NCBI GenBank assembly: GCA_045532035.1
Contig: JAZSFD010000048.1
Coordinates: forward strand, 34,755-98,754
Direction of reading: 5' to 3'
Source: Eubacteriales bacterium
Lineage (GTDB): Bacteria; Bacillota; Clostridia; Oscillospirales; CAG-382
DNA length: 64,000 nucleotides
Part shown: positions 6,197 through 22,526 of the stretch, piece by piece
How the letters are laid out: every line of letters begins with the position of its first letter
Position numbering within the stretch: position 1 is the stretch's first letter
The notes under the pieces: generated by a model
The model's database searches: none
The model's input: only the letters and a program-made list of their open reading frames with translations
Told to the model about the DNA's origin: nothing
Position numbers and translations under genes: made by a program

Positions 6197-6665
6197 GCAT
6201 TCCTCCCGTCATGTTCCTGAAGAAGCGCGAAAAGCTCACCCCTTCGTTTTCGTCGGCACCACTTTCATTCATTATTGCCTCCTTTGCACTCGGAACACGG
6301 TATATGTCGCATTTGAGCTGAAGCTCTACCCGATTTGCCATCCGCACTGCAAGCTCATGCACTGTTTCCTCATCCATACCTTGCCCGAAAATGATACATT
6401 CCAGAGGCTTGAACAGGATGGTGTCAAATTCCGCCTCAAGCATTTCAACAGCTCTGTCGGTCGAGTCTGCAACTCTTACGATTATCTTATCTTTGCCGTT
6501 TTCGGGAGTGCTTTTCCCCGGGGAGGCGAGCTGCGCCGTCACATATATCTTTTCGTCTTCCATGTCGAAGCCAAGCTTTTTGCAAAAAAATCGGTCGTTT
6601 TCATTCTGAGTCGTACAGGAAGCAAAAACCAAAGAAACCGCAATAAGAACAAAAAGTCTTTTCAT
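6180..6665 (-). CDS. Short Ger(x)C-like germination lipoprotein
   Basis: 161 aa with a lipobox LVFASC. It resembles only the N-terminal half of GerxC proteins. Its start overlaps the gerA-type gene stop by 4 nt (ATGA). Confidence 0.45.
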   Translation of the reverse strand: MKRLFVLIAVSLVFASCTTQNENDRFFCKKLGFDMEDEKIYVTAQLASPGKSTPENGKDKIIVRVADSTDRAVEMLEAEFDTILFKPLECIIFGQGMDEETVHELAVRMANRVELQLKCDIYRVPSAKEAIMNESGADENEGVSFSRFFRNMTGGMHDEKK

Positions 6666-8077
6666 TCTGCCTCCTTTGCCTCATCAGGCGCTCTTTTTAG
6701 CGCAAGATCGGGGACTGTTATTATTCCGTCAAGAAGCCCCCTCGGTGCTATGGGGGCAAAAGGTGTAAGATAATGCTTTCCCGCACTTGTCTTCACACAC
6801 AGCCCCGCCGCAAGAGCGAGCAGAAAAAAGGCAACTCCGAAAAGCCCGAAAATGCGGGCGAAAATAAGATTTATAAGTCTTATCAGCGGAAGTGCATTCA
6901 TTATGGGAGGATCAATAAAGCTGCAGGTGGCGGAAAGTGCCGCCACCATTATGACAGGCGCTCCCGCAATCCCCGCTTTTATTGCCGCATCTCCCAATAT
7001 GATACCTGCTACTATCGACACTGCATCTCCCACAGCTCTTGGCATTCGCACTCCCACCTCGCGGATTATCTCAAAAACTATAAGCAGCACCACAAGCTCG
7101 GTAAATGGAGTGAAGGGTATGTCATTACGAGCCTCGGTTATGGTCATATACAGGGTGTGGGGGATTGCCGACACATCAAACTCGAGCAGACCAATATAGA
7201 TTCCGGGCAAAAACACGGCAACAAGCGTTCCAACAATGCGCAAAATACGCAAAAAAGTGGCATAATAGGGTGATTTGAGATAATCCTCCGCCGACTGCAA
7301 GCTTTCAACAAAAAAGTATGGAAGAGTCAGAACGCAAGGACTTCCGTCGCATATCACCGCAACTCTTCCGCCCACAAGCTTCGCCGCCACCTTGTCGGGC
7401 TTTTCGGAATTCCCCACATCGGGAAAAAGCGGATAGCGGGAATCGCCCAGCGAATGCTCGATATATCCCGAATCGATGACGGTCGGAAGATCTATCTTCG
7501 ATAATCTTTTTTTAACCCGTTCTATCACATTTTTGTCGGCAACTCCGTCGAGATATACAACATATATTTCAGTCGGCGAAAGACTGCCCACCGTAGTCTT
7601 TTCGACACACAGTTTTTCAGTTATAAGTCTTTTTCGGATAAGAGCCACATTCATCACGGCGCTTTCCACAAAACCCTCCCTCGGACCGCGGATGACAACT
7701 TCTCCGTCAGGCTCGTTTATCGCCCGTGAATTTGGAGCTTTCGCATCGGCAGCAAAAGCAAAGAGATCCCCGTCAAGATCGAAAAAAATCACCGCATTTC
7801 CGCCGAGAAGAGAAAGCTTTGCCGTATTCTCATCGTCAATTTTCACAAGCTTTGAGGCAAAGACTGCATCGGGCAGATGTTTTTTGTCGTCAAGCTCAAA
7901 AAGAGGCTCGATGAAAAATTCTGATATATAAGCTTTGTCACAGATGCCGATAAAAGAGGCGGCAAAAACCGTCACACCGCAGGGAAGTCCGATCTTGCGC
8001 AGGGCAAAATCACAGCTTTTTGAAAAAGTGCTTTCAAGATGTGCGGCAAGCTCATTTGCGCAAAGTGTATTTTTCAT
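6662..8077 (-). CDS. Spore germination protein, GerA/GerKA family (A subunit)
   Basis: 471 aa with a soluble N-terminal domain (ALIRKRL region) and a C-terminal block of TM helices, as is typical of GerAA-family proteins. Confidence 0.85.
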   Translation of the reverse strand: MKNTLCANELAAHLESTFSKSCDFALRKIGLPCGVTVFAASFIGICDKAYISEFFIEPLFELDDKKHLPDAVFASKLVKIDDENTAKLSLLGGNAVIFFDLDGDLFAFAADAKAPNSRAINEPDGEVVIRGPREGFVESAVMNVALIRKRLITEKLCVEKTTVGSLSPTEIYVVYLDGVADKNVIERVKKRLSKIDLPTVIDSGYIEHSLGDSRYPLFPDVGNSEKPDKVAAKLVGGRVAVICDGSPCVLTLPYFFVESLQSAEDYLKSPYYATFLRILRIVGTLVAVFLPGIYIGLLEFDVSAIPHTLYMTITEARNDIPFTPFTELVVLLIVFEIIREVGVRMPRAVGDAVSIVAGIILGDAAIKAGIAGAPVIMVAALSATCSFIDPPIMNALPLIRLINLIFARIFGLFGVAFFLLALAAGLCVKTSAGKHYLTPFAPIAPRGLLDGIITVPDLALKRAPDEAKEAE

Positions 8078-8178
8078 TTTTCTTTCCTTTTTATGTTCTT
8101 TTGTTCTATTTTTTCCTCTTTACACGAAAATATCCGAAAAAATGATTGTAAAAAAATTAACATATTTTGCCTCAGGTC

Positions 8179-8207
8179 TTGAAAGATGCGACAAAATATG
8201 TTATACT
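8179..8207 (+). promoter_or_regulatory. Sigma-A type promoter of the ASRT-like/PduL/NifU-like/GGGtGRT operon
   Basis: TTGAAA (8179-8184), a 17-nt spacer, then TATACT (8202-8207). Confidence 0.5.
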
Positions 8208-8279
8208 AACATAGAATGGTATCGTTTTGTGAATACCACAAATTTCACCGTCAAAAAGACGGTATCCGAGGAAAAAATC

Positions 8280-8657
8280 ATGTCAAAAGCATACGGTAAG
8301 AAAACCTGGCTCATCCCCGACTGTTTCCTTAACTCAAAATCAAGAAACGAATCGATCAGCCACGAAGCTATCTGTGTCATCAACACCTCTGATGTGGATG
8401 CCCAGATCAAGCTCACCCTCTATTATGAGGACAGAGATATGGCAACAGGCTTTTCGTCTTTCTGCGGAGCTTGCCGTACCCACCACATCCGCCTCGACAA
8501 GATCCGTTCGGAAAAGGGAGAAATGATCCCGAGAGACATTCCCTACGCCATGCTCGTCGAGAGCAACACCCCCATCGTCGTCCAGTATTCGCGCCTTGAC
8601 ACAAGTGAGGTCGAAATGGCTCTCATGACAACCATCGCTTATTCTGTTGATGAATAA
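8280..8657 (+). CDS. Sensory-rhodopsin-transducer (ASRT) family protein, 125 aa
   Basis: ORF 7935..8657 trimmed to the ATG at 8280. The pattern matches my recollection of Anabaena ASRT / Thermotoga TM1070: ISHEAICVINTSDVDAQIKLTLYYEDRD ... RTHHIRLDKI ... VESNTPIVVQYSRLDT ... ALMTTIAYS. Confidence 0.7.
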   Translation: MSKAYGKKTWLIPDCFLNSKSRNESISHEAICVINTSDVDAQIKLTLYYEDRDMATGFSSFCGACRTHHIRLDKIRSEKGEMIPRDIPYAMLVESNTPIVVQYSRLDTSEVEMALMTTIAYSVDE

Positions 8658-8691
8658 TTTTGTGATTAAATCAAAAAAGGAGATAAAAACA

Positions 8692-9288
8692 ATGGCAAAC
8701 AAAGTTCTTCTCGAAACCTCGGCAAGACATCTTCATCTCACCGCCGAGCACATCGAAATCCTTTTCGGAAAAGGACATCAGCTCACAAAGAAAAAGGATC
8801 TTTCCCAGCCCGGTCAGTTCGCTTGTGAAGAAAGAGTAACTGTTGTCGGCTCAAAGAAGGAACTCGCAGGAGTTTCCGTTCTCGGTCCCGCAAGACCTGC
8901 AACACAGGTTGAACTTTCTCTCACAGACGCACGCAGCATCGGTGTTAACGCTCCCATCAGAGAATCCGGTGACATCGCAGGCTCAGGCGCTTGCAAGCTC
9001 GTTGGTCCCTGCGGCGAAGTTGAGATCTCAGAAGGTGTTATTGCCGCTATGCGTCACATCCACCTCGACACAAAGACAGCAAACGAAATGGGTCTTTCGG
9101 ACAAGCAGGTCGTATGCGTTAAGGTCGATTCTGACGGAAGAAAAGCGATCCTTGGCGATGTTGTTGTCAGAGTAAGCGACAAGTTTGCTCCCGCAATGCA
9201 CATCGACACAGATGAATCCAACGCTGTTGGTGCAACTTGCGGCATGGAGGTTGAAATCCTCGACACCTGCGTTTGCAACTGCAAATAA
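8692..9288 (+). CDS. pduL: Phosphate propanoyltransferase / phosphotransacylase PduL
   Basis: Trimmed to the ATG at 8692, after AAAAAGGAG. It has the duplicated PduL repeat with SARHLHLT... and MRHIHLD... His motifs. Confidence 0.85.
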   Translation: MANKVLLETSARHLHLTAEHIEILFGKGHQLTKKKDLSQPGQFACEERVTVVGSKKELAGVSVLGPARPATQVELSLTDARSIGVNAPIRESGDIAGSGACKLVGPCGEVEISEGVIAAMRHIHLDTKTANEMGLSDKQVVCVKVDSDGRKAILGDVVVRVSDKFAPAMHIDTDESNAVGATCGMEVEILDTCVCNCK

Positions 9289-9355
9289 TTTTAATTGCAA
9301 AAACCCTGCTTATTGCAGGTTTAATAAGAAAATAAAAATAAAGGAGACATAAATC

Positions 9356-10051
9356 ATGGCTATTTATTCACGCGAAGTAGAAGAAATGTGTGTTGTTGCC
9401 AAGGGTCCCAACCACGGTCCCGCTCCTATTCCCGAAGAAGGAAAATGGATCCAGGCAAAAGAAATCAAGGATATCTCGGGCTTTACCCACGGTATCGGCT
9501 GGTGCGCACCTCAGCAGGGCGCCTGCAAGCTCTCCCTCAACATCAAGAACGGTATCATCGAGGAAGCTCTCGTTGAGACCATCGGATGCTCGGGCATGAC
9601 TCACTCTGCAGCTATGGCAGCAGAAATTCTCCAGGGCAAGACAATTCTTGAAGCTCTCAACACAGACCTTGTTTGTGATGCTATCAACACAGCAATGAGA
9701 AAGCTCTTCCTCCAGATCGTATACGGCAGAAGCCAGTCTGCTTTCTCGGAAGACGGTCTTACCATCGGCGCAGGTCTTGAAGACCTCGGCAAGGGAACAC
9801 GTTCGCAGGTCGGCACAATGTACGGTACCCGCGCTAAAGGTGTTCGTTACCTTGAAATGGCTGAGGGCTATGTTACAAGAATGGCTCTTGACAAGGACGA
9901 TCAGGTTATCGGTTATGAATTCGTTTCGCTCGGCAAGATGACAGACTTCATCAAGAAGGGCGACGATCCCAACACCGCATACAAGAAGGCTCAGGGCACT
10001 TACGGCAGATTTGATGAAGCTGTTAAGTACATCGATCCTCGTAAAGAATAA
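9356..10051 (+). CDS. NifU/IscU N-terminal-domain-like protein (231 aa, atypical)
   Basis: The region GACKLSLNIKNGIIEEALVETIGCSGMTHSAAMAAEILQGKTILEALN resembles the IscU scaffold fold. The canonical CGD cysteine is not conserved. Confidence 0.6.
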   Translation: MAIYSREVEEMCVVAKGPNHGPAPIPEEGKWIQAKEIKDISGFTHGIGWCAPQQGACKLSLNIKNGIIEEALVETIGCSGMTHSAAMAAEILQGKTILEALNTDLVCDAINTAMRKLFLQIVYGRSQSAFSEDGLTIGAGLEDLGKGTRSQVGTMYGTRAKGVRYLEMAEGYVTRMALDKDDQVIGYEFVSLGKMTDFIKKGDDPNTAYKKAQGTYGRFDEAVKYIDPRKE

Positions 10052-10069
10052 TTCGGGAGGTATAGTATA

Positions 10070-11068
10070 ATGGCATTGTTTGAAAATTATGAAAGACGCG
10101 TTGACAAAATCAACGCTGTACTTGCCGAATACGGAATCGGCTCTATTGAAGAATGTCGCGAGATCACCCTTGCAAAGGGCATCGACTGCGATAAGATCGT
10201 AAAAGAAACTCAGCCTATCTGCTTCGAAAACGCAGTTTGGGCATACACTGTCGGTGCAGCTATCGCAATCAAGAAGGGCTGCACAAAGGCTGCTGACGCC
10301 GCTGCTGCAATCGGTATCGGACTTCAGGCTTTCTGTATTCCCGGCTCTGTTGCTGAAAACCGTAAGGTTGGTCTCGGCCACGGAAACCTCGGTTCGATGC
10401 TTCTCTCGGAAGAAACAGAATGCTTCTGCTTCCTTGCAGGTCACGAATCCTTTGCTGCTGCTGAAGGTGCTATCAAGATTGCCCTCAACGCAAACAAGGT
10501 AAGAACAAAGCCTCTTCGCGTTATCCTCAACGGTCTCGGCAAGGATGCCGCTTTCATTATCTCGAGAATCAACGGCTTCACATATGTCAAGACAGAATTC
10601 AACGCTAACACCGAAGAGATCAAGGTTGTTTCCGAAACTCCTTACTCCGACGGTCCCAGAGCGAAGGTTAAGTGCTACGGCGCTGACAACGTTCCCGAAG
10701 GCGTTGCTATCATGAGACTTGAAAATGTTGGCGTTTCCATCACCGGTAACTCCACCAACCCCACAAGATTCCAGCATCCCGTTGCAGGTACCTACAAGAA
10801 GTGGTGTACAGAAAACGGCGTGAACTACTTCTCTGTTGCATCGGGCGGCGGTACAGGTCGTACACTTCATCCCGACAACATGGCAGCAGGCCCCGCTTCC
10901 TACGGCATGACAGATACCATGGGACGTATGCACTCTGACGCTCAGTTTGCAGGCTCGTCCTCTGTTCCCGCACACGTTGAAATGATGGGACTTATAGGCA
11001 TGGGTAACAACCCCATGGTTGGTGCTACAGTTGCTGTGGCTGTTGCGGTTGAAGAAGCTTCAAAGTAA
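10070..11068 (+). CDS. GGGtGRT family protein (function unknown)
   Basis: 332 aa containing the eponymous motif SGGGTGRTLHPD. The last 22 codons overlap the attL core of the integrated element. Confidence 0.85.
   Translation: MALFENYERRVDKINAVLAEYGIGSIEECREITLAKGIDCDKIVKETQPICFENAVWAYTVGAAIAIKKGCTKAADAAAAIGIGLQAFCIPGSVAENRKVGLGHGNLGSMLLSEETECFCFLAGHESFAAAEGAIKIALNANKVRTKPLRVILNGLGKDAAFIISRINGFTYVKTEFNANTEEIKVVSETPYSDGPRAKVKCYGADNVPEGVAIMRLENVGVSITGNSTNPTRFQHPVAGTYKKWCTENGVNYFSVASGGGTGRTLHPDNMAAGPASYGMTDTMGRMHSDAQFAGSSSVPAHVEMMGLIGMGNNPMVGATVAVAVAVEEASK
11002..11037. repeat. attL core (36-bp perfect direct repeat)
   Basis: GGGTAACAACCCCATGGTTGGTGCTACAGTTGCTGT, identical to 21794..21829. Confidence 0.85.
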
Positions 11069-11106
11069 GCCTTATACAAGGGTTTTCACAACTTAAATAA
11101 AAAACT

Positions 11107-11142
11107 GGAGTTCTGATTCAGACGAGTCAGAACTCCTTTTTT
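11107..11142 (+). terminator. Rho-independent terminator supplied by the element for the GGGtGRT gene
   Basis: Stem GGAGTTCTGA / TCAGAACTCC followed by TTTTTT. Confidence 0.8.
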
Positions 11143-11160
11143 GGTCACATTTGGTCACAT
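11141..11160. repeat. Tandem TTGGTCACAT x2, putative integrase arm-type site (left)
   Basis: The 18-nt string TGGTCACATTTGGTCACA (11142-11159) is identical to 21673-21690. An inverted half-site TGTGAC follows at 11165-11170. Confidence 0.6.
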
Positions 11161-11186: not shown

Positions 11187-12140
11187 TTACTTGTTAGAGG
11201 TTAGATTGGGTATCAAAACAAATTTTGTTTCCGAGTCTGATAGCTCATTATTTCGTTTTTGTATCAGGTCAATAGTCATTTGACGGCTGAACCCAATCTT
11301 GAAAGCATTACTGCAAATAATATCAAACTGCCTTGAACTATCCTCGAATGTATATCCGTTATAGTTGAGAAGCTTTTCGGCATATCCATAATTCAATCCT
11401 AAAAGGAACGCTATATTCACAAAAAGCTTTTTGTCAAATTGTTTTTCACAGGATGAAGCATTTTGAAAGTCGTTATAAACGGTTTTGGATATTCCTGCGA
11501 ATTTCAAAGATTCGTTGTAATTGTTCTTTTTTGGCGTTGTAACATAATCTTCTTTGTAGTGTTTGTCATTCTCACACTCTTTTAGAAACTCTCTGTATGT
11601 CATTGTTTTGAGCATTTCTTTGTCTTTGAATGCTCTTATAGTGATAGTGACATCACAAAAACTCTGCTCAGAAATCACATCGTGAAGTTTTGCACGGTAG
11701 CAGGATTTGTTTTCTGGCTTGAATATTTCAAGAATCTTTTCATAATCACCAGATAGAAAATCATTGCTGATATACTTTGATGTTTTTTCTGGTGCAAAGA
11801 AACTACTCAACTGATTGTCATAAGTGTCCTTAGGATATTCATAAATGCCATTGCCAAAATCAAGCGTTACAGAGAGTCTTTCTTTATACCTTATATAAGC
11901 AAGAGCTTTTTTGAATTTTTCAGAAAGGTAAATGCTGTTTTTGCCGTTCTGTTCTATGTCTTTGTTGTAATGTTCTTCCCATTCAAGACAAAATGCCTCT
12001 AACTTATCAAGGTATTCCTCATCCGTATCGTAGTTTTCTCTTTTTACAACCTCGTGACAAGCAATAAGCCAGTCAGCCAGTTGCATATAGTTTTTGCTTT
12101 TCAAATCTTCTTCAAAAAGCTCACACGACCAATAATTCAT
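11187..12140 (-). CDS. Hypothetical protein with unknown N-terminal domain and C-terminal HTH-associated tail
   Basis: 317 aa with RBS GGTGGTGGA. The C-terminal segment IAFLLGLNYGYAEKLLNYNGYTFEDSSRQFDIICSNAFKIGF matches the (A)GY-x-F/L-S...FD-x-II tail that I recall following XRE-type HTH domains in Firmicutes. Confidence 0.4.
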   Translation of the reverse strand: MNYWSCELFEEDLKSKNYMQLADWLIACHEVVKRENYDTDEEYLDKLEAFCLEWEEHYNKDIEQNGKNSIYLSEKFKKALAYIRYKERLSVTLDFGNGIYEYPKDTYDNQLSSFFAPEKTSKYISNDFLSGDYEKILEIFKPENKSCYRAKLHDVISEQSFCDVTITIRAFKDKEMLKTMTYREFLKECENDKHYKEDYVTTPKKNNYNESLKFAGISKTVYNDFQNASSCEKQFDKKLFVNIAFLLGLNYGYAEKLLNYNGYTFEDSSRQFDIICSNAFKIGFSRQMTIDLIQKRNNELSDSETKFVLIPNLTSNK

Positions 12141-12152
12141 ATTTCCACCACC

Positions 12153-12190
12153 ATAAAAATGCCGCCAGAACGATTAAACATTCTGACGGC
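12153..12190 (-). terminator. Rho-independent terminator about 13 nt upstream of the 317-aa gene start codon
   Basis: On the minus strand: GCCGTCAGAA, a 10-nt loop, TTCTGGCGGC (one G-U pair), then ATTTTTAT. Confidence 0.6.
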
Positions 12191-12343: not shown

Positions 12344-13735
12344 TTATTGTTTATCCTTATATGGCGTATCTTTAAAGCCTTTATCTTTCAGCTTCATTAC
12401 TATTCTATCTATTACAGCTTTCCAAGCCTTTTTAAACCACGCTGTCTCTCCAAACCATTTTACAAGCGCTGGACTGATTGCGTAATATGTTTTTATAAAA
12501 GTTCTGCCATACCAAGTCTTTGAAAGCTGACTATCCCTGAATCGACGAAGTCTCCATACTTCTGGGCAGTCGTATGAGCCATATACACAGGTGGCTATAT
12601 AACATCCACCCTCACCACTTTCTCCATTGGTTATAGCACGCATATGTTCTTCAAGGTTTCCTTCTATTTTTAACTTGGTAGGAAAGCTTAAATAGTGTTG
12701 GCTTTCATACATTCCTTCATAACCTATAACAATGGTTTTGCCATTTATACATTCAATAGAATAATACTTTCCGCATTTTTCGTTAATTTCATCACAAATA
12801 TTACTATCACAAAAATAACGAATAATTCTTTTTATATTACGGTTATTTTCTGGTGTGTTTGAAAAAAGTCGATTGCTACCATTATTATATTTTCTAATAA
12901 TTTCCACACTATATTTACACTCATCAATAAATGCAGATAGATAAGGTGCTACATCATCATACACTTTTAAACTTTCGGGGATGACTGCATGTTGATTATT
13001 GTTAGCATAAATCTGACCCCCGTCTGATGAAATGCTTGTTAACTCTCCATTTGAGTAGGAGAATTTTCCATTCTCATCGTTTAACACAAAACCATAGTTG
13101 TAGTATGTATAAGCACATTCTTTGTTATAACACAAATCAATAATGTGCTGTGAAAACTCCAGTGATGCTTTGTTATATGTATCAATAAGGTTATTTACGT
13201 TATTTACCATCAAGTTTATTTCTTCGATTAGGTGTTCAACATCGTAATTAAACCTTTTGGAGATTTGTTGAATGTAATTTAAATGTTTTTTAATATCAGA
13301 AATACACTTTTCATATCTGCGAATGCTACCACTCAACAGAGGATTGCAACGACAGCTTTTTCTAGGGTAGTCGTAAGAAAACAGTTTTTGATAATTGAGA
13401 TACTGCTGTTCTGATGTGTAAACTGTATAACAGTACTTAGCACACGCAAACCAAACTACAGGATTGTTAGAAGAAGTTCGTTCGAGTTTATTAAGAATGT
13501 TTTCAGCTTCTTTGAACTTTCCGATGATAGTCAAGCTCTCAACATTTTTTATATCTTCATCAACATCATTTATTCCTTTTACCGATACAGGATTATCTAC
13601 CTCAACTAATAATTTTTTGGCAGCTTCTGGAGTATACTTTGTTCCACAAAATTGACAAACAAAATAATCTTCTTGTTTAACCAACTCATTACTTCCACAT
13701 AGTTCGCATTTTATTGCTTTTATTGTTTCTGACAT
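12344..13735 (-). CDS. Zinc-ribbon protein with conserved Cys-rich C-terminal module (cargo module A, gene 2)
   Basis: ORF 12344..13753 trimmed to the ATG at 13735, preceded by AAGGAG at 7-nt spacing. The N-terminus carries CELCGS-x16-CQFCGTKY. The C-terminus is GGCYIATCVYGSYDCPEVWRLRRFRD...WYGRTFIKTYYAISPALVKWFG. I recognise no enzymatic motif. Confidence 0.6.
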   Translation of the reverse strand: MSETIKAIKCELCGSNELVKQEDYFVCQFCGTKYTPEAAKKLLVEVDNPVSVKGINDVDEDIKNVESLTIIGKFKEAENILNKLERTSSNNPVVWFACAKYCYTVYTSEQQYLNYQKLFSYDYPRKSCRCNPLLSGSIRRYEKCISDIKKHLNYIQQISKRFNYDVEHLIEEINLMVNNVNNLIDTYNKASLEFSQHIIDLCYNKECAYTYYNYGFVLNDENGKFSYSNGELTSISSDGGQIYANNNQHAVIPESLKVYDDVAPYLSAFIDECKYSVEIIRKYNNGSNRLFSNTPENNRNIKRIIRYFCDSNICDEINEKCGKYYSIECINGKTIVIGYEGMYESQHYLSFPTKLKIEGNLEEHMRAITNGESGEGGCYIATCVYGSYDCPEVWRLRRFRDSQLSKTWYGRTFIKTYYAISPALVKWFGETAWFKKAWKAVIDRIVMKLKDKGFKDTPYKDKQ

Positions 13736-13757
13736 TTTATTCTCCTTTTTCATTTAG

Positions 13758-14375
13758 CTATTTAAGTAGTTTTTTATTTACTGCTTTGTATGCCTTGTTT
13801 GATATTACAACTGTAAGTAATGAAATGCAAGACACAATTAAAACTGTTATAGTACAAGAGCCGAGATTTATTGGTATTTTAACGCTTTTGAAACAATTAT
13901 TAAGCACTTGTAAAAGGCTGATTGAAAATATTATATCGAATATGAACGCAAAAACCCAAAAAGCTTCCAATGTTATATGCAATGGCTTATAATATAATAT
14001 TTGTCTTTTCTCGGATGAACAATATTTGTTCTCTATACTTTTAAGCCTCTTTTCAAGTTTCATAATTAATTCACGCGAAACATATATAGTACGTATACAG
14101 GATATCGTTCCAAACAATCCTATAAACGAACAAATAGAACAAGCTATATAGAGCAGACAAGATGTAGCATTATTATCAGAATAAATCTCAGAAAACAGCG
14201 TTGCGATTATTGCCAAAACTCCAATGGTAACAGCCAAATTAATTGTTATTACTGTTTGTGCTCCGTGCAAAGCATTTACAAATTCATTTGATAAAACACT
14301 ATACTGTGTTATTACAAAATCAGAATCATTGTTACCCATATTCTTTATACAACACTTTCTTTTCAATGATTTCAC
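13758..14375 (-). CDS. Four-TM membrane protein (cargo module A, gene 1)
   Basis: 205-aa ORF. The likely true start is the TTG at 14366, after AAGGGG. Four hydrophobic helices are visible, with an amphipathic loop between TM2 and TM3. Confidence 0.55.
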   Translation of the reverse strand: MKSLKRKCCIKNMGNNDSDFVITQYSVLSNEFVNALHGAQTVITINLAVTIGVLAIIATLFSEIYSDNNATSCLLYIACSICSFIGLFGTISCIRTIYVSRELIMKLEKRLKSIENKYCSSEKRQILYYKPLHITLEAFWVFAFIFDIIFSISLLQVLNNCFKSVKIPINLGSCTITVLIVSCISLLTVVISNKAYKAVNKKLLK

Positions 14376-14401
14376 CCCTTCGTTGTGAATTTTTCAAGAA
14401 T

Positions 14402-14430
14402 ATTATAACACATAATTTTCCAAAAGACAA
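14402..14430 (-). promoter_or_regulatory. Promoter of cargo module A (extended -10)
   Basis: On the minus strand: TTGTCT, a 17-nt spacer, TATAAT, with TGT immediately upstream of the -10. The palindrome at 14441-14454 lies directly upstream. Confidence 0.45.
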
Positions 14431-14440
14431 TACCTTTATG

Positions 14441-14454
14441 TCCGTTTAGACGGA
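14441..14454. repeat. 14-bp palindromic motif TCCGTTTAGACGGA (copy 1 of 3)
   Basis: The same 14-mer occurs at 15390-15403. Its reverse complement occurs at 18160-18173. All three copies are in island intergenic regions. Confidence 0.7.
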
Positions 14455-14484: not shown

Positions 14485-15267
14485 CTATGGTGGTATATAT
14501 AGTTTAATTAAATAACAGAGTTCCTTTAATATATAGGAAGAATTATTTGTATTAAGACGTTTGTATAATCCATTAAATATATAAACGTTCAATATATATT
14601 TAATAGTTAAAATTAAATTAAGAAGTAGTATATATATTCTTTCTTTATTACATGAGAGTTTTTTGAGAAACAGAAAAGGGTTGCAAATGCCCTTGAATAC
14701 AAGGATTCTGGCGGTTTCATCAGCCGCACTTTTTCTGAACTTTAATCTGTTATCCCCGACAGCTTCTATTGCCTTGTAGAAACTGAGCTTGTCATTGTTA
14801 AGAACCCCTGCTTTGTCACAATCGAGCTTGCGGATGGCAAGGGATTGTTTTGCAAGGTACTCAACGGAAGCCTCTACATACGAATTGGCTTCGTTCTCCC
14901 AAGTTACTTTCCTTTTATATTTAGTGCGGAGGTGCTTCTTTAACATTTCCACAATGGTAGTGGCAGGGTTAGCGTACATCACAATGTGAATATGCGCGGG
15001 GACTTCGGGTTTAAGGCAGTACGGGTTTGTACGGACAAAGATTGTTCGGGGTCTGCCTCGTGTCCCCGTGTGGAGTGCTTGAACCTCTCCTGCACGTGGA
15101 TTATTCTTGCTTATACCGACAATGGCTTTGCAGGAGTAACCGTTCTTCTTGCAATGATAGTCAAGGAACGAAACGATTGCTTCCGCTTCTGCAACAGCTT
15201 CTTCAAAGCTTGTGAATAGTCCTGCCGACACATTCACACTCATAACATGGCTTACTCTATGGCTCAC
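14485..15267 (-). CDS. Hypothetical protein, possible HUH/Y1 (IS200-TnpA-like) nuclease fold
   Basis: GTG start after AAGGGGGTG. The segment PAHIHIVMYANPATTIVEMLKKHLRTKY...TWENEANSY...SVEYLAKQS resembles the D-HVH-LLV...P...LKG...W...Y...YI-x-x-Q layout of Y1 transposases. The last 70 or so codons run through very AT-rich DNA, so the true 3' end is uncertain. Confidence 0.35.
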   Translation of the reverse strand: MSHRVSHVMSVNVSAGLFTSFEEAVAEAEAIVSFLDYHCKKNGYSCKAIVGISKNNPRAGEVQALHTGTRGRPRTIFVRTNPYCLKPEVPAHIHIVMYANPATTIVEMLKKHLRTKYKRKVTWENEANSYVEASVEYLAKQSLAIRKLDCDKAGVLNNDKLSFYKAIEAVGDNRLKFRKSAADETARILVFKGICNPFLFLKKLSCNKERIYILLLNLILTIKYILNVYIFNGLYKRLNTNNSSYILKELCYLIKLYIPP

Positions 15268-15389: not shown

Positions 15390-15403
15390 TCCGTTTAGAC
15401 GGA
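15390..15403. repeat. 14-bp palindromic motif TCCGTTTAGACGGA (copy 2 of 3)
   Basis: Identical to copy 1. It lies upstream of the 14485..15267 gene. Confidence 0.7.
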
Positions 15404-17376: not shown

Positions 17377-17624
17377 AAGAAAATATTAAATATATTTTTA
17401 TTATTCTACTGTAATGAACATCGTTTTATAACTAAATACCGACAAAAACAGACATTTTATTTGGTTGGAACATATTTTGGGGTATTTAGTATCTGTTGTC
17501 ACAAAAAGAAAATGACCGCCGACAAAATATCGTGCGGTCTATAATTATGCCGTTATATTCGACAATCCTCGACAGTATAATCTAATATCCAATAAAGATA
17601 TAGATATATGAGAGGAGAATGGAT

Positions 17625-18155
17625 ATGAGCATGGAGATTTATCTCACAAATCTTGGAAAGTATGTAGAAGGCTGTCTTGTCGGACAATGGGTTAAACTAC
17701 CTATTGATGAGGACAAGCTTAACGACATACTGGAAAGAATCGGTATTAACGAGGAATATGAGGAATTCTTTATCACGGACTACGAATCGTCCTTTGTGGG
17801 ACTTCGGGACATCTTAGGGGAGCATGAGAACATTGAAGCACTCAACGAGCTTGCGGAGATGTTAGAGTCTCTGTCTGACGATGACGAAGACAAGCTAAAC
17901 GCAATTCTCGAATGTGAAAGTTGCAGGGGAGTTTCCGACATCAAAGAGCTTGTTGAACGGCTTGACGAGTTTGACCTCATCACCGACATAAACGGCGATG
18001 ATGACCTTGGGCGATACTTGATTGATGAATGTTGCTGTCTTTCTGTCCCCGCACATTTGCAGAACTACATAGACTATGAAAGCTATGGCAGAGATGTACG
18101 CTTGGAAGCTAATATCACCTACACTTCTTACGGCTGTTTGTTTGATAATAGATAA
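17625..18155 (+). CDS. ardA: Antirestriction protein ArdA
   Basis: N-terminus IYLTNLGKYVEGCLVGQWVKLP...IGINEEYEEFFITDYE and a highly acidic body, as in Tn916 Orf18 / ArdA. The start is taken at the ATG 7 nt after AGAGGAG; the ORF track begins at 17619. Confidence 0.8.
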   Translation: MSMEIYLTNLGKYVEGCLVGQWVKLPIDEDKLNDILERIGINEEYEEFFITDYESSFVGLRDILGEHENIEALNELAEMLESLSDDDEDKLNAILECESCRGVSDIKELVERLDEFDLITDINGDDDLGRYLIDECCCLSVPAHLQNYIDYESYGRDVRLEANITYTSYGCLFDNR

Positions 18156-18159
18156 AAAA

Positions 18160-18173
18160 TCCGTCTAAACGGA
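18160..18173. repeat. 14-bp palindromic motif, reverse orientation TCCGTCTAAACGGA (copy 3 of 3)
   Basis: Embedded in an 8-bp stem AAATCCGT/ACGGATTT just after the ardA stop and 17 nt upstream of the xis-int promoter -35. Confidence 0.7.
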
Positions 18174-18549: not shown

Positions 18550-20094
18550 ATGGCAAGAGAAGTTCATGTAGGTAAAGCTGCTATTACTAAGAATGGCGAG
18601 CCTACAAAGAAATTTACTTGGTATTATCGTTTTGAGCGAAAAGATGTTGCCCCCGATGGCAGACGTCAATTTACGAAGAAACGAGGATTCAGAACAAGAG
18701 ATGAGGCTCTTGAAGCAGGTCAGATTGCAATGGCTCTTGATTATGGTATCAGCACTCCTGCGGTAAATACTCCGCAGGAGACAAAGCCAGAGAACAAGTA
18801 TGCAAGTATGACATTTGAAGACTACATAATCAATGTATGGATTCCCAACAATCAAAGGTCTTGGAAATCTACTACGCTTGAGGGGTATAGGAAGAAACTA
18901 AAGAACCAAGCATTCAGCAAGTTCGGTAATACTCCTATATCAGCAATCACAGGGGAAATGCTAAGTAATTATTTTGATACGATTTACATTAACACATCTA
19001 CCGCAATAAGCTCTATTGACAATTTACGTTCTCTTTTATCACAGATATTTAAGTATGCCGTTCTTAACAGGCATATTGAATATAATCCGATGATAAGTGT
19101 TAAAAAGCCGAATTTTCGGGTTGAAACAAGCGTGCCGAAAGAAAAACAGGTACGAGATGCGATAAGCGAAGAAACCTTAACCGCAATATTTGAAAGATTC
19201 CCAGAGGGAAGTCCTGCTCATTTGCCACTGAAATTATGCTGTATAGCAGGGTTAAGAGTAAATGAGGCTTTAGGTCTTGCGTGGTCTGATATTGATTTTG
19301 AAAAGCACAGAATGTTCGTCAGACGACAGATAGTCAAGATTCAAAAAGAGCATGAGCTTACTCCAAGAGAAAAAGAGATGGTTGAGAAGCACCCCGAACT
19401 TGCTTCTTTTAGTATGACTTGTTCAAATCCGAAATATGATTCAAAACGAGTTATCCCTCTTTTTCCAGAGCTTGAAGAACTGTTGCTTCGTGAAAGGAAA
19501 CGTCAGATAGAGCAAAAGGCACTATTCGAGGAAAACGGTGTTGAATACAAGCAGTATTTCTATACAAAGGCAACTGCTCCGAGCTACACTCTTGACTATG
19601 AGGAGTTCATACGTTTAAAAGAACGCATGGATTTTGAAGATGGAATTGTAAATACGAAAGGCATAGGCTATTCTATTGACTTTGTATGCAGACGAGATGA
19701 TGGAGAGCTTGCTACAATACACACAGCAAACCATGTGTCCCGTGTTGTACATGGCAAAGAAAAAGAGCCTGCTATTTCCGAAACATTCAACATTCATTCT
19801 CTTAGACATACTTTTGCATCAAGGCTCAGAGCAAGTGAATTTAACGGAAGCGAACACTTGATACAAGAGTTCATGGGGCATAAGTCCGAAAGAGAAACAA
19901 AAGACTATATGCACATATCGGAAAGTGAGTTTGCTTCTGCTACTGCCAGAATAGGCACAAGTAAATCAAAGGTAGATACCGTACTTGAATTTATCCGACT
20001 TCAAGGATTAAATGCTTCAGATATTTCGGAGTTGAGCTTGCGTTTGAGTACGCTCAATTCCGAGAGTTCTCAACTTAATACCGAGCAAAACTAA
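18550..20094 (+). CDS. int: Tyrosine-type site-specific integrase with N-terminal arm-binding domain
   Basis: 514 aa. Arg-I in AGLRVNEALGL, H-x-x-R in HSLRHTFASRL, and His/Tyr in GHKSERETKDYMH. The N-terminal YYRFERKD...KKRGFRTRDEA resembles AP2-like arm-binding domains. Confidence 0.9.
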   Translation: MAREVHVGKAAITKNGEPTKKFTWYYRFERKDVAPDGRRQFTKKRGFRTRDEALEAGQIAMALDYGISTPAVNTPQETKPENKYASMTFEDYIINVWIPNNQRSWKSTTLEGYRKKLKNQAFSKFGNTPISAITGEMLSNYFDTIYINTSTAISSIDNLRSLLSQIFKYAVLNRHIEYNPMISVKKPNFRVETSVPKEKQVRDAISEETLTAIFERFPEGSPAHLPLKLCCIAGLRVNEALGLAWSDIDFEKHRMFVRRQIVKIQKEHELTPREKEMVEKHPELASFSMTCSNPKYDSKRVIPLFPELEELLLRERKRQIEQKALFEENGVEYKQYFYTKATAPSYTLDYEEFIRLKERMDFEDGIVNTKGIGYSIDFVCRRDDGELATIHTANHVSRVVHGKEKEPAISETFNIHSLRHTFASRLRASEFNGSEHLIQEFMGHKSERETKDYMHISESEFASATARIGTSKSKVDTVLEFIRLQGLNASDISELSLRLSTLNSESSQLNTEQN

Positions 20095-20136: not shown

Positions 20137-20667
20137 TTATTGGAGTTTTGGTTGGTTATTATTTTGAAGCTCTTTTATAGACTCTTCCAAATTTTGTATT
20201 CTCCACTCTAAATTGTTATTTGTGACAGCAAAAGACGATTTCATTTCAGTTTTAATCTGTTCCAGTTGGAGTTCGAGTAATTCTTTATCTACACAATTAC
20301 TGTCAATGCTTTCTATCTGCTTTTCCATATATTCAACACGCTGCTCTAACAGTGCGGAATCTCTCCATAAGAACAGTGTTGCTGTTCCAATCGCTACAAT
20401 TATTGAGCAAATGACAGTAGTTAGAACATTTTGTCTAATCCAATCGATTATTCTAAAACGAAGAGATTTAGGCTTGATTTTGCTTTTATTATCAATACTA
20501 TCATTTTCTTCTTCGATTGAATCAGCAGTACCCTGTAAGTATTTGTTAGGATTGGGATAAGTATCATCTATATGAGGGGTGGGTGATGATAAGAAATTTC
20601 TATACCCAGAATACTGTGCTTGGTTTTTCCTTTTCAGTTTACTTAAGTTAGAATTTCTTTTTGCCAT
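20137..20667 (-). CDS. Single-pass membrane protein with C-terminal coiled coil (cargo module B, gene 2)
   Basis: 176 aa with a polar, basic N-terminus, one TM helix (VLTTVICSIIVAIGTATLFLW) and a heptad-rich tail (LEQRVEYMEKQIESI...LELQLEQIKTEM...IQNLEESIKELQ). It overlaps the upstream gene by 20 nt. Confidence 0.5.
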   Translation of the reverse strand: MAKRNSNLSKLKRKNQAQYSGYRNFLSSPTPHIDDTYPNPNKYLQGTADSIEEENDSIDNKSKIKPKSLRFRIIDWIRQNVLTTVICSIIVAIGTATLFLWRDSALLEQRVEYMEKQIESIDSNCVDKELLELQLEQIKTEMKSSFAVTNNNLEWRIQNLEESIKELQNNNQPKLQ

Positions 20668-21337
20668 TTTGAACCCCGTTAATCACATTTAAAATATCCG
20701 AATTATAATTGTCATTAGCATTAGTAATAAACTTATCTATGCAATCCCTAACATCTGCACGAACGGGAATATAATGGGCTTGATAATCATACAAAATCCC
20801 ACGTGTATTTTCGTCCATATTCCTTACAGTATATATTTTGTTTATAAAATCCGAGTTTTCTGCAAATAAACTACCTTTAACTGTTCCCTCTTTTTTTGCA
20901 AATCGAAAATCCATTATATCTCCAACGGTTGGGTTAAAATATTGAGAAGAAAACTTTTTAATCTCTTGTTCTGTGAGTGTTGTATCATACACAATTCCCA
21001 AACGCCTTACTACTAATTCGTATTTTGAGATAATCTGAGGGATTATTTGTTTTGAAATCCGTTTTATAAACATTTTGTATTCGTCATTGTAGTTTGAATC
21101 AATAGTTTGAGAGAAAATAAGATTGTTAGATGATAATGTTAATGAATGATTGAATTGTGGATTATACAACTTTCTTTCAGTTGTGTAGTTGGGAGAAATA
21201 TTAGTAAAAAACTCTGCACCCAATAGGGTGTCTTTTCCATACAGAATGTCATCAGCTATCTCTCCCCAATAATCAAGGATTTTAAAACTTCTGTTAAACA
21301 ATACGCCAAATGTCAGCTGTTTTATACTATCGCTCAT
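20648..21337 (-). CDS. Hypothetical soluble protein (cargo module B, gene 1)
   Basis: 229 aa with no motif I can name. It is likely translationally coupled to 20137..20667. Confidence 0.45.
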   Translation of the reverse strand: MSDSIKQLTFGVLFNRSFKILDYWGEIADDILYGKDTLLGAEFFTNISPNYTTERKLYNPQFNHSLTLSSNNLIFSQTIDSNYNDEYKMFIKRISKQIIPQIISKYELVVRRLGIVYDTTLTEQEIKKFSSQYFNPTVGDIMDFRFAKKEGTVKGSLFAENSDFINKIYTVRNMDENTRGILYDYQAHYIPVRADVRDCIDKFITNANDNYNSDILNVINGVQNGKKKF

Positions 21338-21672: not shown

Positions 21673-21690
21673 TGGTCACATTTGGTCACA
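21673..21690. repeat. TGGTCACATTTGGTCACA, putative integrase arm-type site (right)
   Basis: Identical to 11142-11159. It lies 103 bp inside the attR core. Confidence 0.6.
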
Positions 21691-21793: not shown

Positions 21794-21829
21794 GGGTAAC
21801 AACCCCATGGTTGGTGCTACAGTTGCTGT
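21794..21829. repeat. attR core (36-bp perfect direct repeat)
   Basis: Identical to 11002..11037. Confidence 0.85.
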
Positions 21830-21860
21830 TGCGGTTGCTGTTGAAGAAAGCGCGAAGTAA
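21794..21860 (+). pseudogene. Orphaned original 3' end of the GGGtGRT gene
   Basis: In frame it reads GNNPMVGATVAVAVAVEESAK-stop, against ...EEASK-stop in the intact gene. There is no upstream coding continuation. Confidence 0.8.
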
Positions 21861-21880
21861 TTCATATTTAACAGCAGAAA

Positions 21881-21914: not shown

Positions 21915-22100
21915 TTTGTAAACAACCGAAAAAGCGCTTGACTCCTGCATATGGATAATGTATAATATGTGCAAGGACACCTCCGAACGGTTGATCAACA
22001 CTCGGATATGTTCGTCGTTTGTCAGAAAAGCCGCATTCATTTCTTTCTGTATGTGGAAATGATTGGATTAGTTAATCAAAAAATATACGGAGGTAAGACT

Positions 22101-22526
22101 ATGAAAAAACTTTTATGGTTATTAACTGCTATTATAATATGTGTTTCGTTGGTGTCTTGCGACGAACAATCACCTGCGGAAGATAATTTAACTAATGAAG
22201 ATAATACAACAGTTGACCAAAACCAACCCGCAGAAGATGCCGCTGAGATCGAAATCAAAATTGATTTTGTTGCAGAACAGCTTGGTTTGACCGACGAATC
22301 GGAAGTTTTGTACGGCTTGATAGGTGCTGTTGCGGGAAAACAGTACAGCAACGGAAACATTGAGCTTTATCAGTTTGATGAAAACAGCCAAGCCTATAAA
22401 GATCTTATCGGCAGAAAAACTTATTTAATTCCCGCTGCATACAAGAACGGAGTTGTTCTCATATTCGCTTTGGGTGTAGAAACAGATACTGATCTTGTTG
22501 ATGCGTTTAATGCGTTGGAATTTTAA
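22101..22526 (+). CDS. Secreted lipoprotein, function unknown
   Basis: Trimmed to the ATG at 22101 after GGAGGT. Signal peptide with lipobox LVSC. Confidence 0.5.
   Translation: MKKLLWLLTAIIICVSLVSCDEQSPAEDNLTNEDNTTVDQNQPAEDAAEIEIKIDFVAEQLGLTDESEVLYGLIGAVAGKQYSNGNIELYQFDENSQAYKDLIGRKTYLIPAAYKNGVVLIFALGVETDTDLVDAFNALEF

Follow-up and report, generated by a model that had tools for sequence, protein, structure and literature searches.

Abortive-infection systems of the RexAB type combine a protein with four transmembrane (TM) segments and a cytosolic sensor, and cassette-type mosaic genes, such as hsdS of type I restriction-modification (R-M) systems and the genes of phage receptor-binding proteins, keep conserved ends as recombination handles. 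Variable accessory hotspots with anti-restriction genes are a feature of integrative elements and of the leading regions of plasmids (for the latter, PMC11541004). In Bacillus subtilis, PspA and the SPFH protein YdjI are drawn to the membrane by YdjG, a zinc-ribbon protein, and by the membrane protein YdjH (PMC8581546; PMC11237479; bioRxiv 10.64898/2026.02.06.704340); YdjG is described as combining two zinc ribbons with an NTF2-like domain and a TM segment, and YdjH as having a TPM domain (PMC11237479). In annotated plasmid proteins, the NCBIfam domain NF041770 (CFI-box-CTERM) stands behind N-terminal modules that are unrelated to each other, such as TPR in one case and a cold-shock domain with a zinc ribbon in another. 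Here we compare with these systems a two-gene operon (genes 1 and 2) carried by a ~10.8-kb integrative element within a 64-kb stretch of DNA from a Eubacteriales bacterium (contig JAZSFD010000048.1). This whole stretch is called the window, and loci elsewhere are given by L numbers.

The product of gene 2 likewise has the NF041770 domain behind unrelated modules, at its extreme C-terminus, and differs from the other proteins of this kind as a gut-Firmicute sub-type with a fixed zinc-ribbon handle, the motif GCY[IV]AT..YGSYDCP.VW.LRR.RD and an orphan middle. With PspA-YdjGHI (SamGHI) the operon has in common an N-terminal zinc-ribbon protein encoded together with a multi-pass membrane protein, and a YdjI-type SPFH protein is encoded in 22-25 of 80 genome loci of the gene 2 family. 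In contrast to YdjGHI, the window operon has neither SPFH nor PspA, the gene is carried on a mobile element and its middle is swappable; judged by the published description, gene 1 moreover lacks a TPM domain, gene 2 lacks both an NTF2-like domain and a TM segment, and the 5-TM protein encoded in the SPFH loci has no Pfam match. The likeness to the RexAB type is that of a 4-TM protein co-transcribed with a soluble protein on a mobile element; it does not extend to similarity with any PADLOC model or to a conserved partnership of the two genes. Gene 2 resembles hsdS-like mosaic genes in having ends conserved at synonymous sites around a saturated centre, in the tandem copies of a related element (L005) and in the replacement of the protein body in another (L006), whereas an invertase, a diversity-generating retroelement (DGR), a silent-cassette array and a second copy in the window are all lacking. 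As in the plasmid hotspots, gene 2 lies between conserved backbone genes of an ArdA-bearing element, in a slot of variable content; on the other hand, the backbone beyond integrase and ArdA is without annotation, and any defence or anti-defence activity of genes 1 and 2 is putative.

The interest of the locus lies in the architecture of the gene 2 family, its mode of evolution and its link to SPFH proteins, and not in the gene pair. It shows how the family evolves, the ends being homogenised even at synonymous sites and the middle replaced as a whole in a mobile-element hotspot. The two genes and the three parts of gene 2 are as follows.

12344..13735, minus strand: gene 2, 463 amino acids (aa), ATG at 13735
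13601..13735, minus strand: zinc-ribbon "handle" of gene 2 (residues 1-45), with C10, C13, C27 and C30 and a conserved PEAAKKL linker
12611..13600, minus strand: variable middle cassette of gene 2 (residues 46-375), with TPR-like helices at residues ~58-120, the rest helical and beta, with almost no relatives
12347..12610, minus strand: CFI-box C-terminal domain of gene 2 (residues 376-463), basic and aromatic-rich, with four predicted helices
13758..14366, minus strand: gene 1, 202 aa, TTG start; alternative GTG start at 14375

Architecture and cassette exchange in the gene 2 family

An earlier sequence-only reading of this DNA described gene 2 as a zinc-ribbon protein with an Asn/Tyr-rich middle and a C-terminal module that recurs on otherwise unrelated proteins, and most of this description holds. 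The ribbon is real and belongs to the TFIIB/A2L type (PF08792, residues 8-32, E 2.5e-5), albeit with a marginal score (24.2 bits against a gathering threshold of 22.9). Its spacing is CxxC-x13-CxxC rather than the x16 originally given, and C10, C13, C27 and C30 are invariant in an alignment of 14 sequences (A1). The middle contains 11.2% Asn and 8.5% Tyr over residues 46-375. The recurrent module is the CFI-box (NF041770); residues 378-446 match all 69 positions of the model with E 1.4e-21 and a score of 76.1 bits, well over the cut-off of 40, and the module is found as well on plasmid proteins with TPR or cold-shock N-termini. Its placement at the C-terminus of the 463-aa protein is the same in the 14 and in 120 aligned relatives. 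The CFI-box of 88 aa contains 18 K/R, 8 D/E and 17 W/Y/F residues, giving a net charge of +10 and an aromatic content of 19%; Cys378 and Cys390 are invariant in alignment A1, and among the 120 sequences Cys378 is still invariant and Cys390 nearly so.

The hidden Markov model (HMM) and structure-prediction searches that the same reading had proposed returned the zinc ribbon, the CFI-box and a TPR signal for gene 2; gene 1 matched no model in Pfam, NCBIfam, PADLOC or PHROGs. The full-length AlphaFold2 (AF2) model of gene 2, with a predicted local distance difference test score (pLDDT) of 72, comprises the ribbon, confidently modelled TPR-like and long helices (58-204), two beta units and a helical C-terminus, and the AF2 model of the CFI-box obtained from 120 sequences is a compact four-helix unit (pLDDT 86). 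A Foldseek comparison of this high-confidence CFI-box model with PDB and BFVD gave no match, and that of the full-length model with PDB gave weak TPR matches only, none of them at E <= 0.001. A profile search against PDB sequences placed TPR at positions ~57-135 and found nothing beyond TPR. Outside the zinc ribbon and the CFI-box, gene 2 matched nothing in Pfam, NCBIfam, PADLOC or PHROGs; it has no TM segment, and no NTPase, nuclease or other signalling domain was detected by Pfam, NCBIfam or Foldseek against PDB. No enzymatic or pore-forming effector is recognisable.

The family to which gene 2 belongs is extensive in gut bacteria. A search with the protein returned at least 4177 matching sequence clusters, nearly all of them aligned over the C-terminal domain alone (~19-25% of the query, 60-75% identity), and relatives are present in at least 583 genomes (one genome per species) of Clostridia, Bacteroidales, Treponema and Bacilli. 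An alignment of 120 members shows hardly any variation over the first ~45 and the last ~88 residues. In the middle, other members of the family carry TPR, LRR_5 or ankyrin repeats. Relatives are labelled in their source records as "TFIIB-type zinc finger domain-containing protein" or as "tetratricopeptide repeat protein", and a literature search on the CFI-box name, its sequence motifs and the combination of a TFIIB ribbon with SPFH found no papers. For all its size and its curated domain name, the family has no paper, structure or function attached to it.

CFI-box proteins also occur on plasmids of Proteobacteria, none of them with a TM segment. A TPR plus CFI-box protein is encoded by one of the five genes of a 5.2-kb mobilisable plasmid of Acinetobacter, and a 137-aa version of the CFI-box protein is found on a conjugative plasmid of Cupriavidus. 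On a conjugative plasmid of Burkholderia anthina (L092 2902-4240), a gene for a cold-shock domain - zinc ribbon - CFI-box protein directly follows a Lar-family restriction-alleviation gene; the same gene also adjoins an integrase. Other members lie beside a divergent XRE regulator near dnaE-pfk-spoIVB, showing that the family is not purely mobile. A phage origin was considered and rejected, since a search of 50,697 phage records yielded a single weak relative (in a Clostridioides record named phage pCD1602_4).

With its closest relatives (P0002-P0005), gene 2 shares 78-89% aa identity in the handle (1-45) and 80-91% in the CFI-box (376-463), as against 21-28% in the middle (46-375). Relative to L005, L008 and L009 the CFI-box is 89-91% identical at the aa level, and the handle reaches 87-89% identity to the closest relatives. 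In blastn alignments with L008 and L009, identity is 90-93% over two terminal stretches of the gene, ~200 nucleotides (nt) long on the 5' side and ~275 nt on the 3' side, and nothing aligns between them. At third codon positions, the CFI-box segment is 87-90% identical to L005, L008 and L009; the corresponding values are 74-86% for the handle and 40-42% for the middle.

Locus L005 is informative in this respect as a related element, the backbone proteins of which are 80% (ArdA), 76% (p217), 54% (p306), 36% (p260) and 36% (p317) identical to those of the window element. For the same pair of elements, the third-position identity of the backbone genes for ArdA, p217 and p306 is 40-52%, and the ~215 nt of non-coding DNA past the stop codon of gene 2 are again ~88% identical to L005. 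This high identity of the ends at synonymous sites and in non-coding DNA argues that they have been homogenised by recent recombination, and not conserved by selection alone. The slot that holds genes 1 and 2 in the window has the same backbone genes on either side in L005, but is filled there with a 95-aa gene, a Sel1/TPR-like gene of 201 aa and two members of the gene 2 family in tandem; this difference in content on a shared backbone establishes that the variable cargo slot is real.

The middle is an orphan cassette that is replaced as a whole, and the pattern indicates exchange by recombination. When used alone as a query, the middle found only 7 matches among 1.84 billion representative proteins. 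The two tandem copies in L005 differ in their middles. In the second copy (L005 7280-8385) a frameshift cuts off the ribbon, leaving a 36-aa open reading frame (ORF) followed by a 342-aa ORF, and this copy could be either a decaying copy or a reservoir cassette. L006, which is a near-identical element at the same GGGtGRT chromosomal site, goes further: the gene that follows gene 1 there (L006 1342-2703) has only residues 1-33 in common with gene 2, continues with an unrelated TPR-containing body and ends in a second Cys cluster (CCQYCGG...CKKC) with no CFI-box. A second or silent copy of gene 2 was sought within the window and none was found, and a DGR was rejected because the only reverse transcriptase nearby (in L001) has group II intron domains. 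The exchange of cassettes appears to take place between elements rather than inside one genome.

Gene 1 and possible membrane partners of the family

Gene 1 has four hydrophobic segments (residues 42-60, 73-99, 140-158 and 173-191), in line with the four TM helices attributed to it earlier, and by the positive-inside rule its N- and C-termini and a 35-aa basic loop would be cytoplasmic. Its original boundaries (13758-14375) need a correction at the 5' end, as TTG at 14366, located 8 nt past AAGGGG and coinciding with the start of the homologue P0121, is a likelier start than GTG at 14375. The protein has no match in Pfam, NCBIfam, PADLOC, PHROGs or PDB; homologues were collected in 9 clusters by a single-sequence search and in 16 clusters by a profile search.

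In all contexts where gene 1 is conserved at 82% identity or above (the window, L006, L008 and L009/L010), a zinc-ribbon gene lies 1-22 nt downstream, with gaps of 1-4 nt in L008 and L009. Gene 1 is 98% identical in L006, and the gene 1 region shows 93.8% identity to L009 by blastn. The more distant relatives, at 57% (L007) and 52% (L103/L104) identity, have other genes downstream, and those at 33-42% identity either directly follow the gene of a giant surface protein with Big_2, cohesin and dockerin domains or belong to a cluster with FHA, FtsK-SpoIIIE and ADP-ribosylglycohydrolase genes. Conversely, a gene 1 homologue accompanies none of the 80 genome loci of the gene 2 family and is missing in L001/L002, L003 and L005. 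The proposal of a conserved gene pair therefore fails outside one narrow lineage, that in which gene 1 is at least 82% identical; lack of synteny between the homologues had been named beforehand as grounds for abandoning it, and this is largely what the neighbourhood survey found. The pair is lineage-specific and is not a conserved two-gene system. A comparison of gene orders points the same way: in L008 a 176-aa 1-TM gene precedes gene 1 and the family gene, and in L001/L002 a homologous 179-aa 1-TM gene directly precedes the family gene, so that gene 1 looks as if it had been inserted.

Among the distant relatives of gene 1, those in L094, L096 and L101 (6001-6612) are located 5 nt past genes for secreted Big_2/cohesin/dockerin proteins of 1336-1459 aa. 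In L096 the 4-TM gene is tandemly duplicated (the second copy at 6620-7204) and is followed by Peptidase_M78, DUF4411 and TIR_2 genes. In L098-L100 (2900-11103) the relative is surrounded by genes for an FHA/YscD-like protein, a 481-aa lipoprotein-like protein, a double FtsK/SpoIIIE ATPase and an ADP-ribosylglycohydrolase, a cluster that resembles a secretion or conflict locus. Interpretation of these distant relatives in terms of polymorphic toxins and their immunity was rejected, as the C-termini of the giant proteins encoded upstream are conserved and non-toxin.

Clustering of neighbouring genes across the 80 family loci revealed two recurrent partners, an SPFH gene and a 5-TM gene, each in 25 of the 80 and both together in 22, usually in the order SPFH gene, 5-TM gene, zinc-ribbon/CFI-box family gene. 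The SPFH partner consists of a PF13421 (Band_7_1) domain and a C-terminal double zinc ribbon, as in YdjI; the 5-TM partner is 222-250 aa long. This operon link of the family to YdjI-type SPFH proteins and multi-pass membrane partners is a lead provided by the survey. Loci of this type include L013, L022, L031, L047, L053, L064, L070 and ~18 others (around position 8000), and the operons often continue with an extra 2-4-TM gene or with other zinc-ribbon-headed proteins. In L047, L070 and L056, proteins with the architecture zinc ribbon - TPR - TIR_2 - TM - RCC1 (ORFs of 857-895 aa and 582-606 aa) are encoded beside the SPFH/family operons, and their TIR domain is a hint that some of these clusters may act in signalling or immunity. 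Homology of gene 1 to the recurrent 5-TM partner was tested with hhalign and rejected (probability 5%), and neither the element nor the rest of the 64-kb window contains an SPFH or PspA gene.

The sequence-only reading had offered the pair as defence-like, possibly of an abortive-infection or exclusion type, while placing it in no named defence family. The latter statement agrees with our searches, as neither gene 1 nor gene 2 matches any family of PADLOC-DB v2 at E <= 1; in addition, four other genes of the window element and six proteins encoded beside family members elsewhere (including SPFH, 5-TM, TIR, Sel1-like and 1-TM proteins) have no PADLOC match at E <= 0.01. The defence idea itself is a candidate reading that lacks direct support.

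A possible role for gene 2 and its alternatives

We tentatively favour a role of gene 2 as a membrane-proximal adaptor with a swappable ligand-binding middle and with gene 1 as a lineage-specific membrane partner, operating in host-element conflict or at the envelope. Gene 2 would reside in the cytoplasm near the membrane, where the zinc ribbon and the basic, aromatic CFI-box may anchor it either on a membrane partner or on the inner leaflet, while the TPR/variable middle would bind a protein ligand particular to each cassette. Elements would then swap specificities by homologous recombination in the conserved ends. Gene 1 would be the membrane partner in this lineage, taking the same positional role as the unrelated 5-TM protein of the SPFH (YdjI-like) operons. 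Given the place of the gene in a hypervariable mobile-element slot next to anti-restriction genes, the ligand would most likely be a participant in conflict between host and element or between elements, or else an envelope state that matters for transfer. A protein-binding middle is supported by the TPR signal in gene 2 and by the TPR, LRR_5 and ankyrin middles of its relatives; a link to the membrane is supported by the SPFH/5-TM operons, the parallel with YdjGHI and the composition of the CFI-box, and a tie to mobile elements by the CFI-box proteins on the Acinetobacter, Burkholderia and Cupriavidus plasmids.

A number of observations weigh against this proposal. Gene 1 is dispensable for the family, being absent from L001, L003, L005 and 80 of 80 genome loci, and it stays in L006 although the gene downstream has lost its CFI-box; as the L006 protein shares only residues 1-33 with gene 2, any contact between the products of genes 1 and 2 would have to go through these residues. 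Gene 1 is not homologous to the 5-TM partner, and the window has no SPFH gene. The membrane docking of gene 2 is a step that we infer for a protein with no TM segment, and the CFI-box is modelled as a folded globular domain, not as an in-plane helix; its charge would suit nucleic-acid binding equally well, and in one of the plasmid proteins it is joined to a cold-shock domain. PADLOC and PHROGs gave no match, and many members occupy apparently chromosomal contexts, so that a role in conflict is not implied for the whole family.

The adjacency of the two genes may have no functional meaning at all, gene 1 having been inserted and being merely co-transcribed with a gene 2 that acts alone or with host factors. 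We regard this as rather doubtful, even though the gene order of L008 compared with L001/L002 suggests such an insertion, relatives of gene 1 elsewhere accompany quite different genes, and the zinc-ribbon handle is unchanged with or without gene 1. The difficulty is that a zinc-ribbon gene begins 1-22 nt downstream of gene 1 in all four of the independent contexts where gene 1 is at least 82% identical, even where the body of that gene has been replaced, and that in at least 15-25 other loci a membrane protein is encoded immediately ahead of the family member, which suggests a recurrent requirement for a membrane partner. Alternatively, the pair might constitute a RexAB-like abortive-infection or exclusion system, in which gene 2 would sense an invader via its middle and open or activate the 4-TM gene 1 product, depolarising or blocking the membrane. 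Co-transcription of a 4-TM protein with a soluble repeat protein, the hypervariable slot beside ArdA, replacement of the middle as expected under an arms race, and the zinc-ribbon-TPR-TIR-TM-RCC1 proteins encoded in some SPFH operons with family members would all be in keeping with it. We nevertheless consider it unlikely: neither protein nor the tested neighbours match PADLOC, more than 99% of gene 2 relatives lack gene 1 and the pair is confined to a narrow lineage, the partners of distant gene 1 relatives are unrelated (giant Big_2/cohesin proteins or the FHA/FtsK-SpoIIIE cluster), no NTPase, nuclease or other signalling domain is present, and in L006 the presumed sensor is replaced past residue 33 while gene 1 remains 98% identical.

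Improbable to a similar degree is an anti-defence or establishment factor that would travel with ArdA, its middle binding and neutralising variable host defence proteins and gene 1 being incidental. Such a factor would fit with the presence of ardA on the same element, the CFI-box protein beside the Lar gene on the conjugative Burkholderia plasmid and the others on small mobilisable and conjugative plasmids, with TPR, LRR and ankyrin middles as typical protein binders, and with the diversification of the cassettes. It fits poorly with the ~30% of the family in SPFH/membrane operons and with others at conserved chromosomal sites, with the position of gene 2 (divergent from ardA and several genes away), with the occurrence of a relative in just 1 of 50,697 phage records, and with the lack of homology to described anti-defence proteins and of literature found. 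The SPFH - membrane protein - zinc-ribbon protein order in 22-25 of the 80 loci and its parallel in pspA-ydjGHI of B. subtilis (PMC8581546; PMC11237479; bioRxiv 10.64898/2026.02.06.704340) would rather suggest an accessory of envelope stress or membrane organisation of the YdjGHI/SamGHI kind, an element-borne fitness factor plugging into the SPFH/PspA machinery of the host. For the window operon we find this very unlikely, as there is no SPFH/PspA gene in the element or the 64-kb window, the domains of YdjG and YdjH (NTF2-like and TM; TPM; PMC11237479) were not found here, and a housekeeping role leaves both the cassette replacement and the mobile-element location unexplained.

Returning to the adaptor reading, a more speculative extension of it, to which we assign a low probability, would make the whole family a modular platform: the fixed handle and CFI-box would hold an exchangeable cassette at the membrane, sometimes on an SPFH scaffold, and cassettes would be traded to retarget host-element conflict, forming a new class of defence, exclusion or anti-defence sensors with gene 1 as one of several membrane effectors or partners. 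If the middles are specificity determinants, the family would offer a tractable model of modular retargeting, and might represent a new participant in conflict between elements and hosts, or in envelope sensing, within the gut microbiome; if they are not, the idea of a conserved defence-like pair is still corrected.

The operon and the integrative element

Genes 1 and 2 form one bicistronic operon that extends from promoter to terminator in the variable slot of the element. Both have homologues and are therefore genes rather than chance ORFs. Both lie on the minus strand, 22 nt apart, as originally described; the gap is correct, as only the gene 2 ATG at 13735 is preceded by a ribosome-binding site (AAAGGAG), while the upstream ATG at 13753 has none. 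The signals around the operon are listed below.

14402..14430, minus strand: promoter TTGTCT-17-TATAAT with a TG extended -10, sigma-70/sigma-A-like, the sole TG-extended 10/12 match on that strand
12161..12190, minus strand: terminator-like hairpin of 12 pairs followed by a T run, closing the gene 1-gene 2 operon
14441..14454, no strand assigned: 14-mer near-palindrome TCCGTTTAGACGGA, 11 nt upstream of the -35 hexamer
15390..15403, no strand assigned: another exact copy of TCCGTTTAGACGGA, ahead of the 260-aa gene at 14485-15267
18160..18173, no strand assigned: third copy of the 14-mer, inverted, 5 nt past the ardA stop codon

The extended -10 promoter is present where it had been proposed, yet promoter-like sites as a class occur at chance level in this AT-rich DNA (17 observed against 18.6 expected). 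The 14-bp palindrome reported upstream of it is imperfect (6 of 7 pairs) and non-random: TCCGTTTAGACGGA has three exact copies in the window, all within the element, compared with 0.01 expected, and is kept upstream of gene 1 in L006, L009 and L010. It looks like a candidate shared operator or hairpin that coordinates genes of the element.

The element as a whole has the following landmarks.

11002..11075, no strand assigned: left 74-nt direct repeat (att-like), the 3' end of the GGGtGRT gene, duplicated by the element
21794..21867, no strand assigned: right 74-nt direct repeat (att-like), the right boundary of the ~10.8-kb element
11142..11159, no strand assigned: tandem TGGTCACA-TT-TGGTCACA of 18 nt just inside the left end, with an exact copy at 21673-21690
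11187..12140, minus strand: 317-aa element gene (p317), downstream of the operon and bordering the variable slot on one side
14485..15267, minus strand: 260-aa element gene (p260), with a PAHIHIVMY stretch
17619..18155, plus strand: ArdA antirestriction gene (PF07275, E 1.1e-40)
18550..20094, plus strand: tyrosine integrase (PF00589, PF22022, PF14659, PF14657)

A tyrosine integrase, flanking direct repeats and atypical composition are all present, identifying this ~10.8-kb segment as an integrative element. The low-GC block at ~11-22 kb of the window has a GC content of 31-40%, compared with 45-50% in the flanks, and the two 74-nt repeats, 10.8 kb apart, are 85% identical with the initial 36 nt identical. 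Together with the same backbone and different slot content in L005, these features bear out the earlier assignment of the pair to the cargo slot of an ArdA-carrying integrative element. The seat of the element is the 3' end of the GGGtGRT gene (10070-11068, PF14057). The second exact copy of TGGTCACA-TT-TGGTCACA lies just inside the right end of the element, and these tandem motifs may be candidate arm-type sites for the integrase or an excisionase. Except for ArdA and the integrase, the genes of the element have no annotation in Pfam, NCBIfam or PHROGs, and transfer machinery and an origin were not recognised among them. The p317 gene, with no match in Pfam, PHROGs, NCBIfam or PADLOC, is 94% identical in L006, compared with 36% in L005.

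Several minor observations concern the same region. The target of integration is the final gene of a conserved ASRT / PTAC / NifU-like / GGGtGRT cluster (window 7935-11068), and the element supplies the GGGtGRT gene with a replacement 3' end and a terminator (11107-11136); in addition to PTAC, the window encodes GerA, and these and related genes point to a spore-forming host resembling Clostridia. The PAHIHIVMY stretch of p260 resembles the HUH motif of rolling-circle Rep proteins or relaxases, with no database support, and the final ~60 residues of p260 look like low-complexity read-through. Between the integrase and the right repeat there are two minus-strand genes without annotation (20137-21337), one of them with weak holin-like PHROG matches, and a low-GC gene just beyond the element (21969-22526) shows a weak likeness to PG1828-family lipoproteins.

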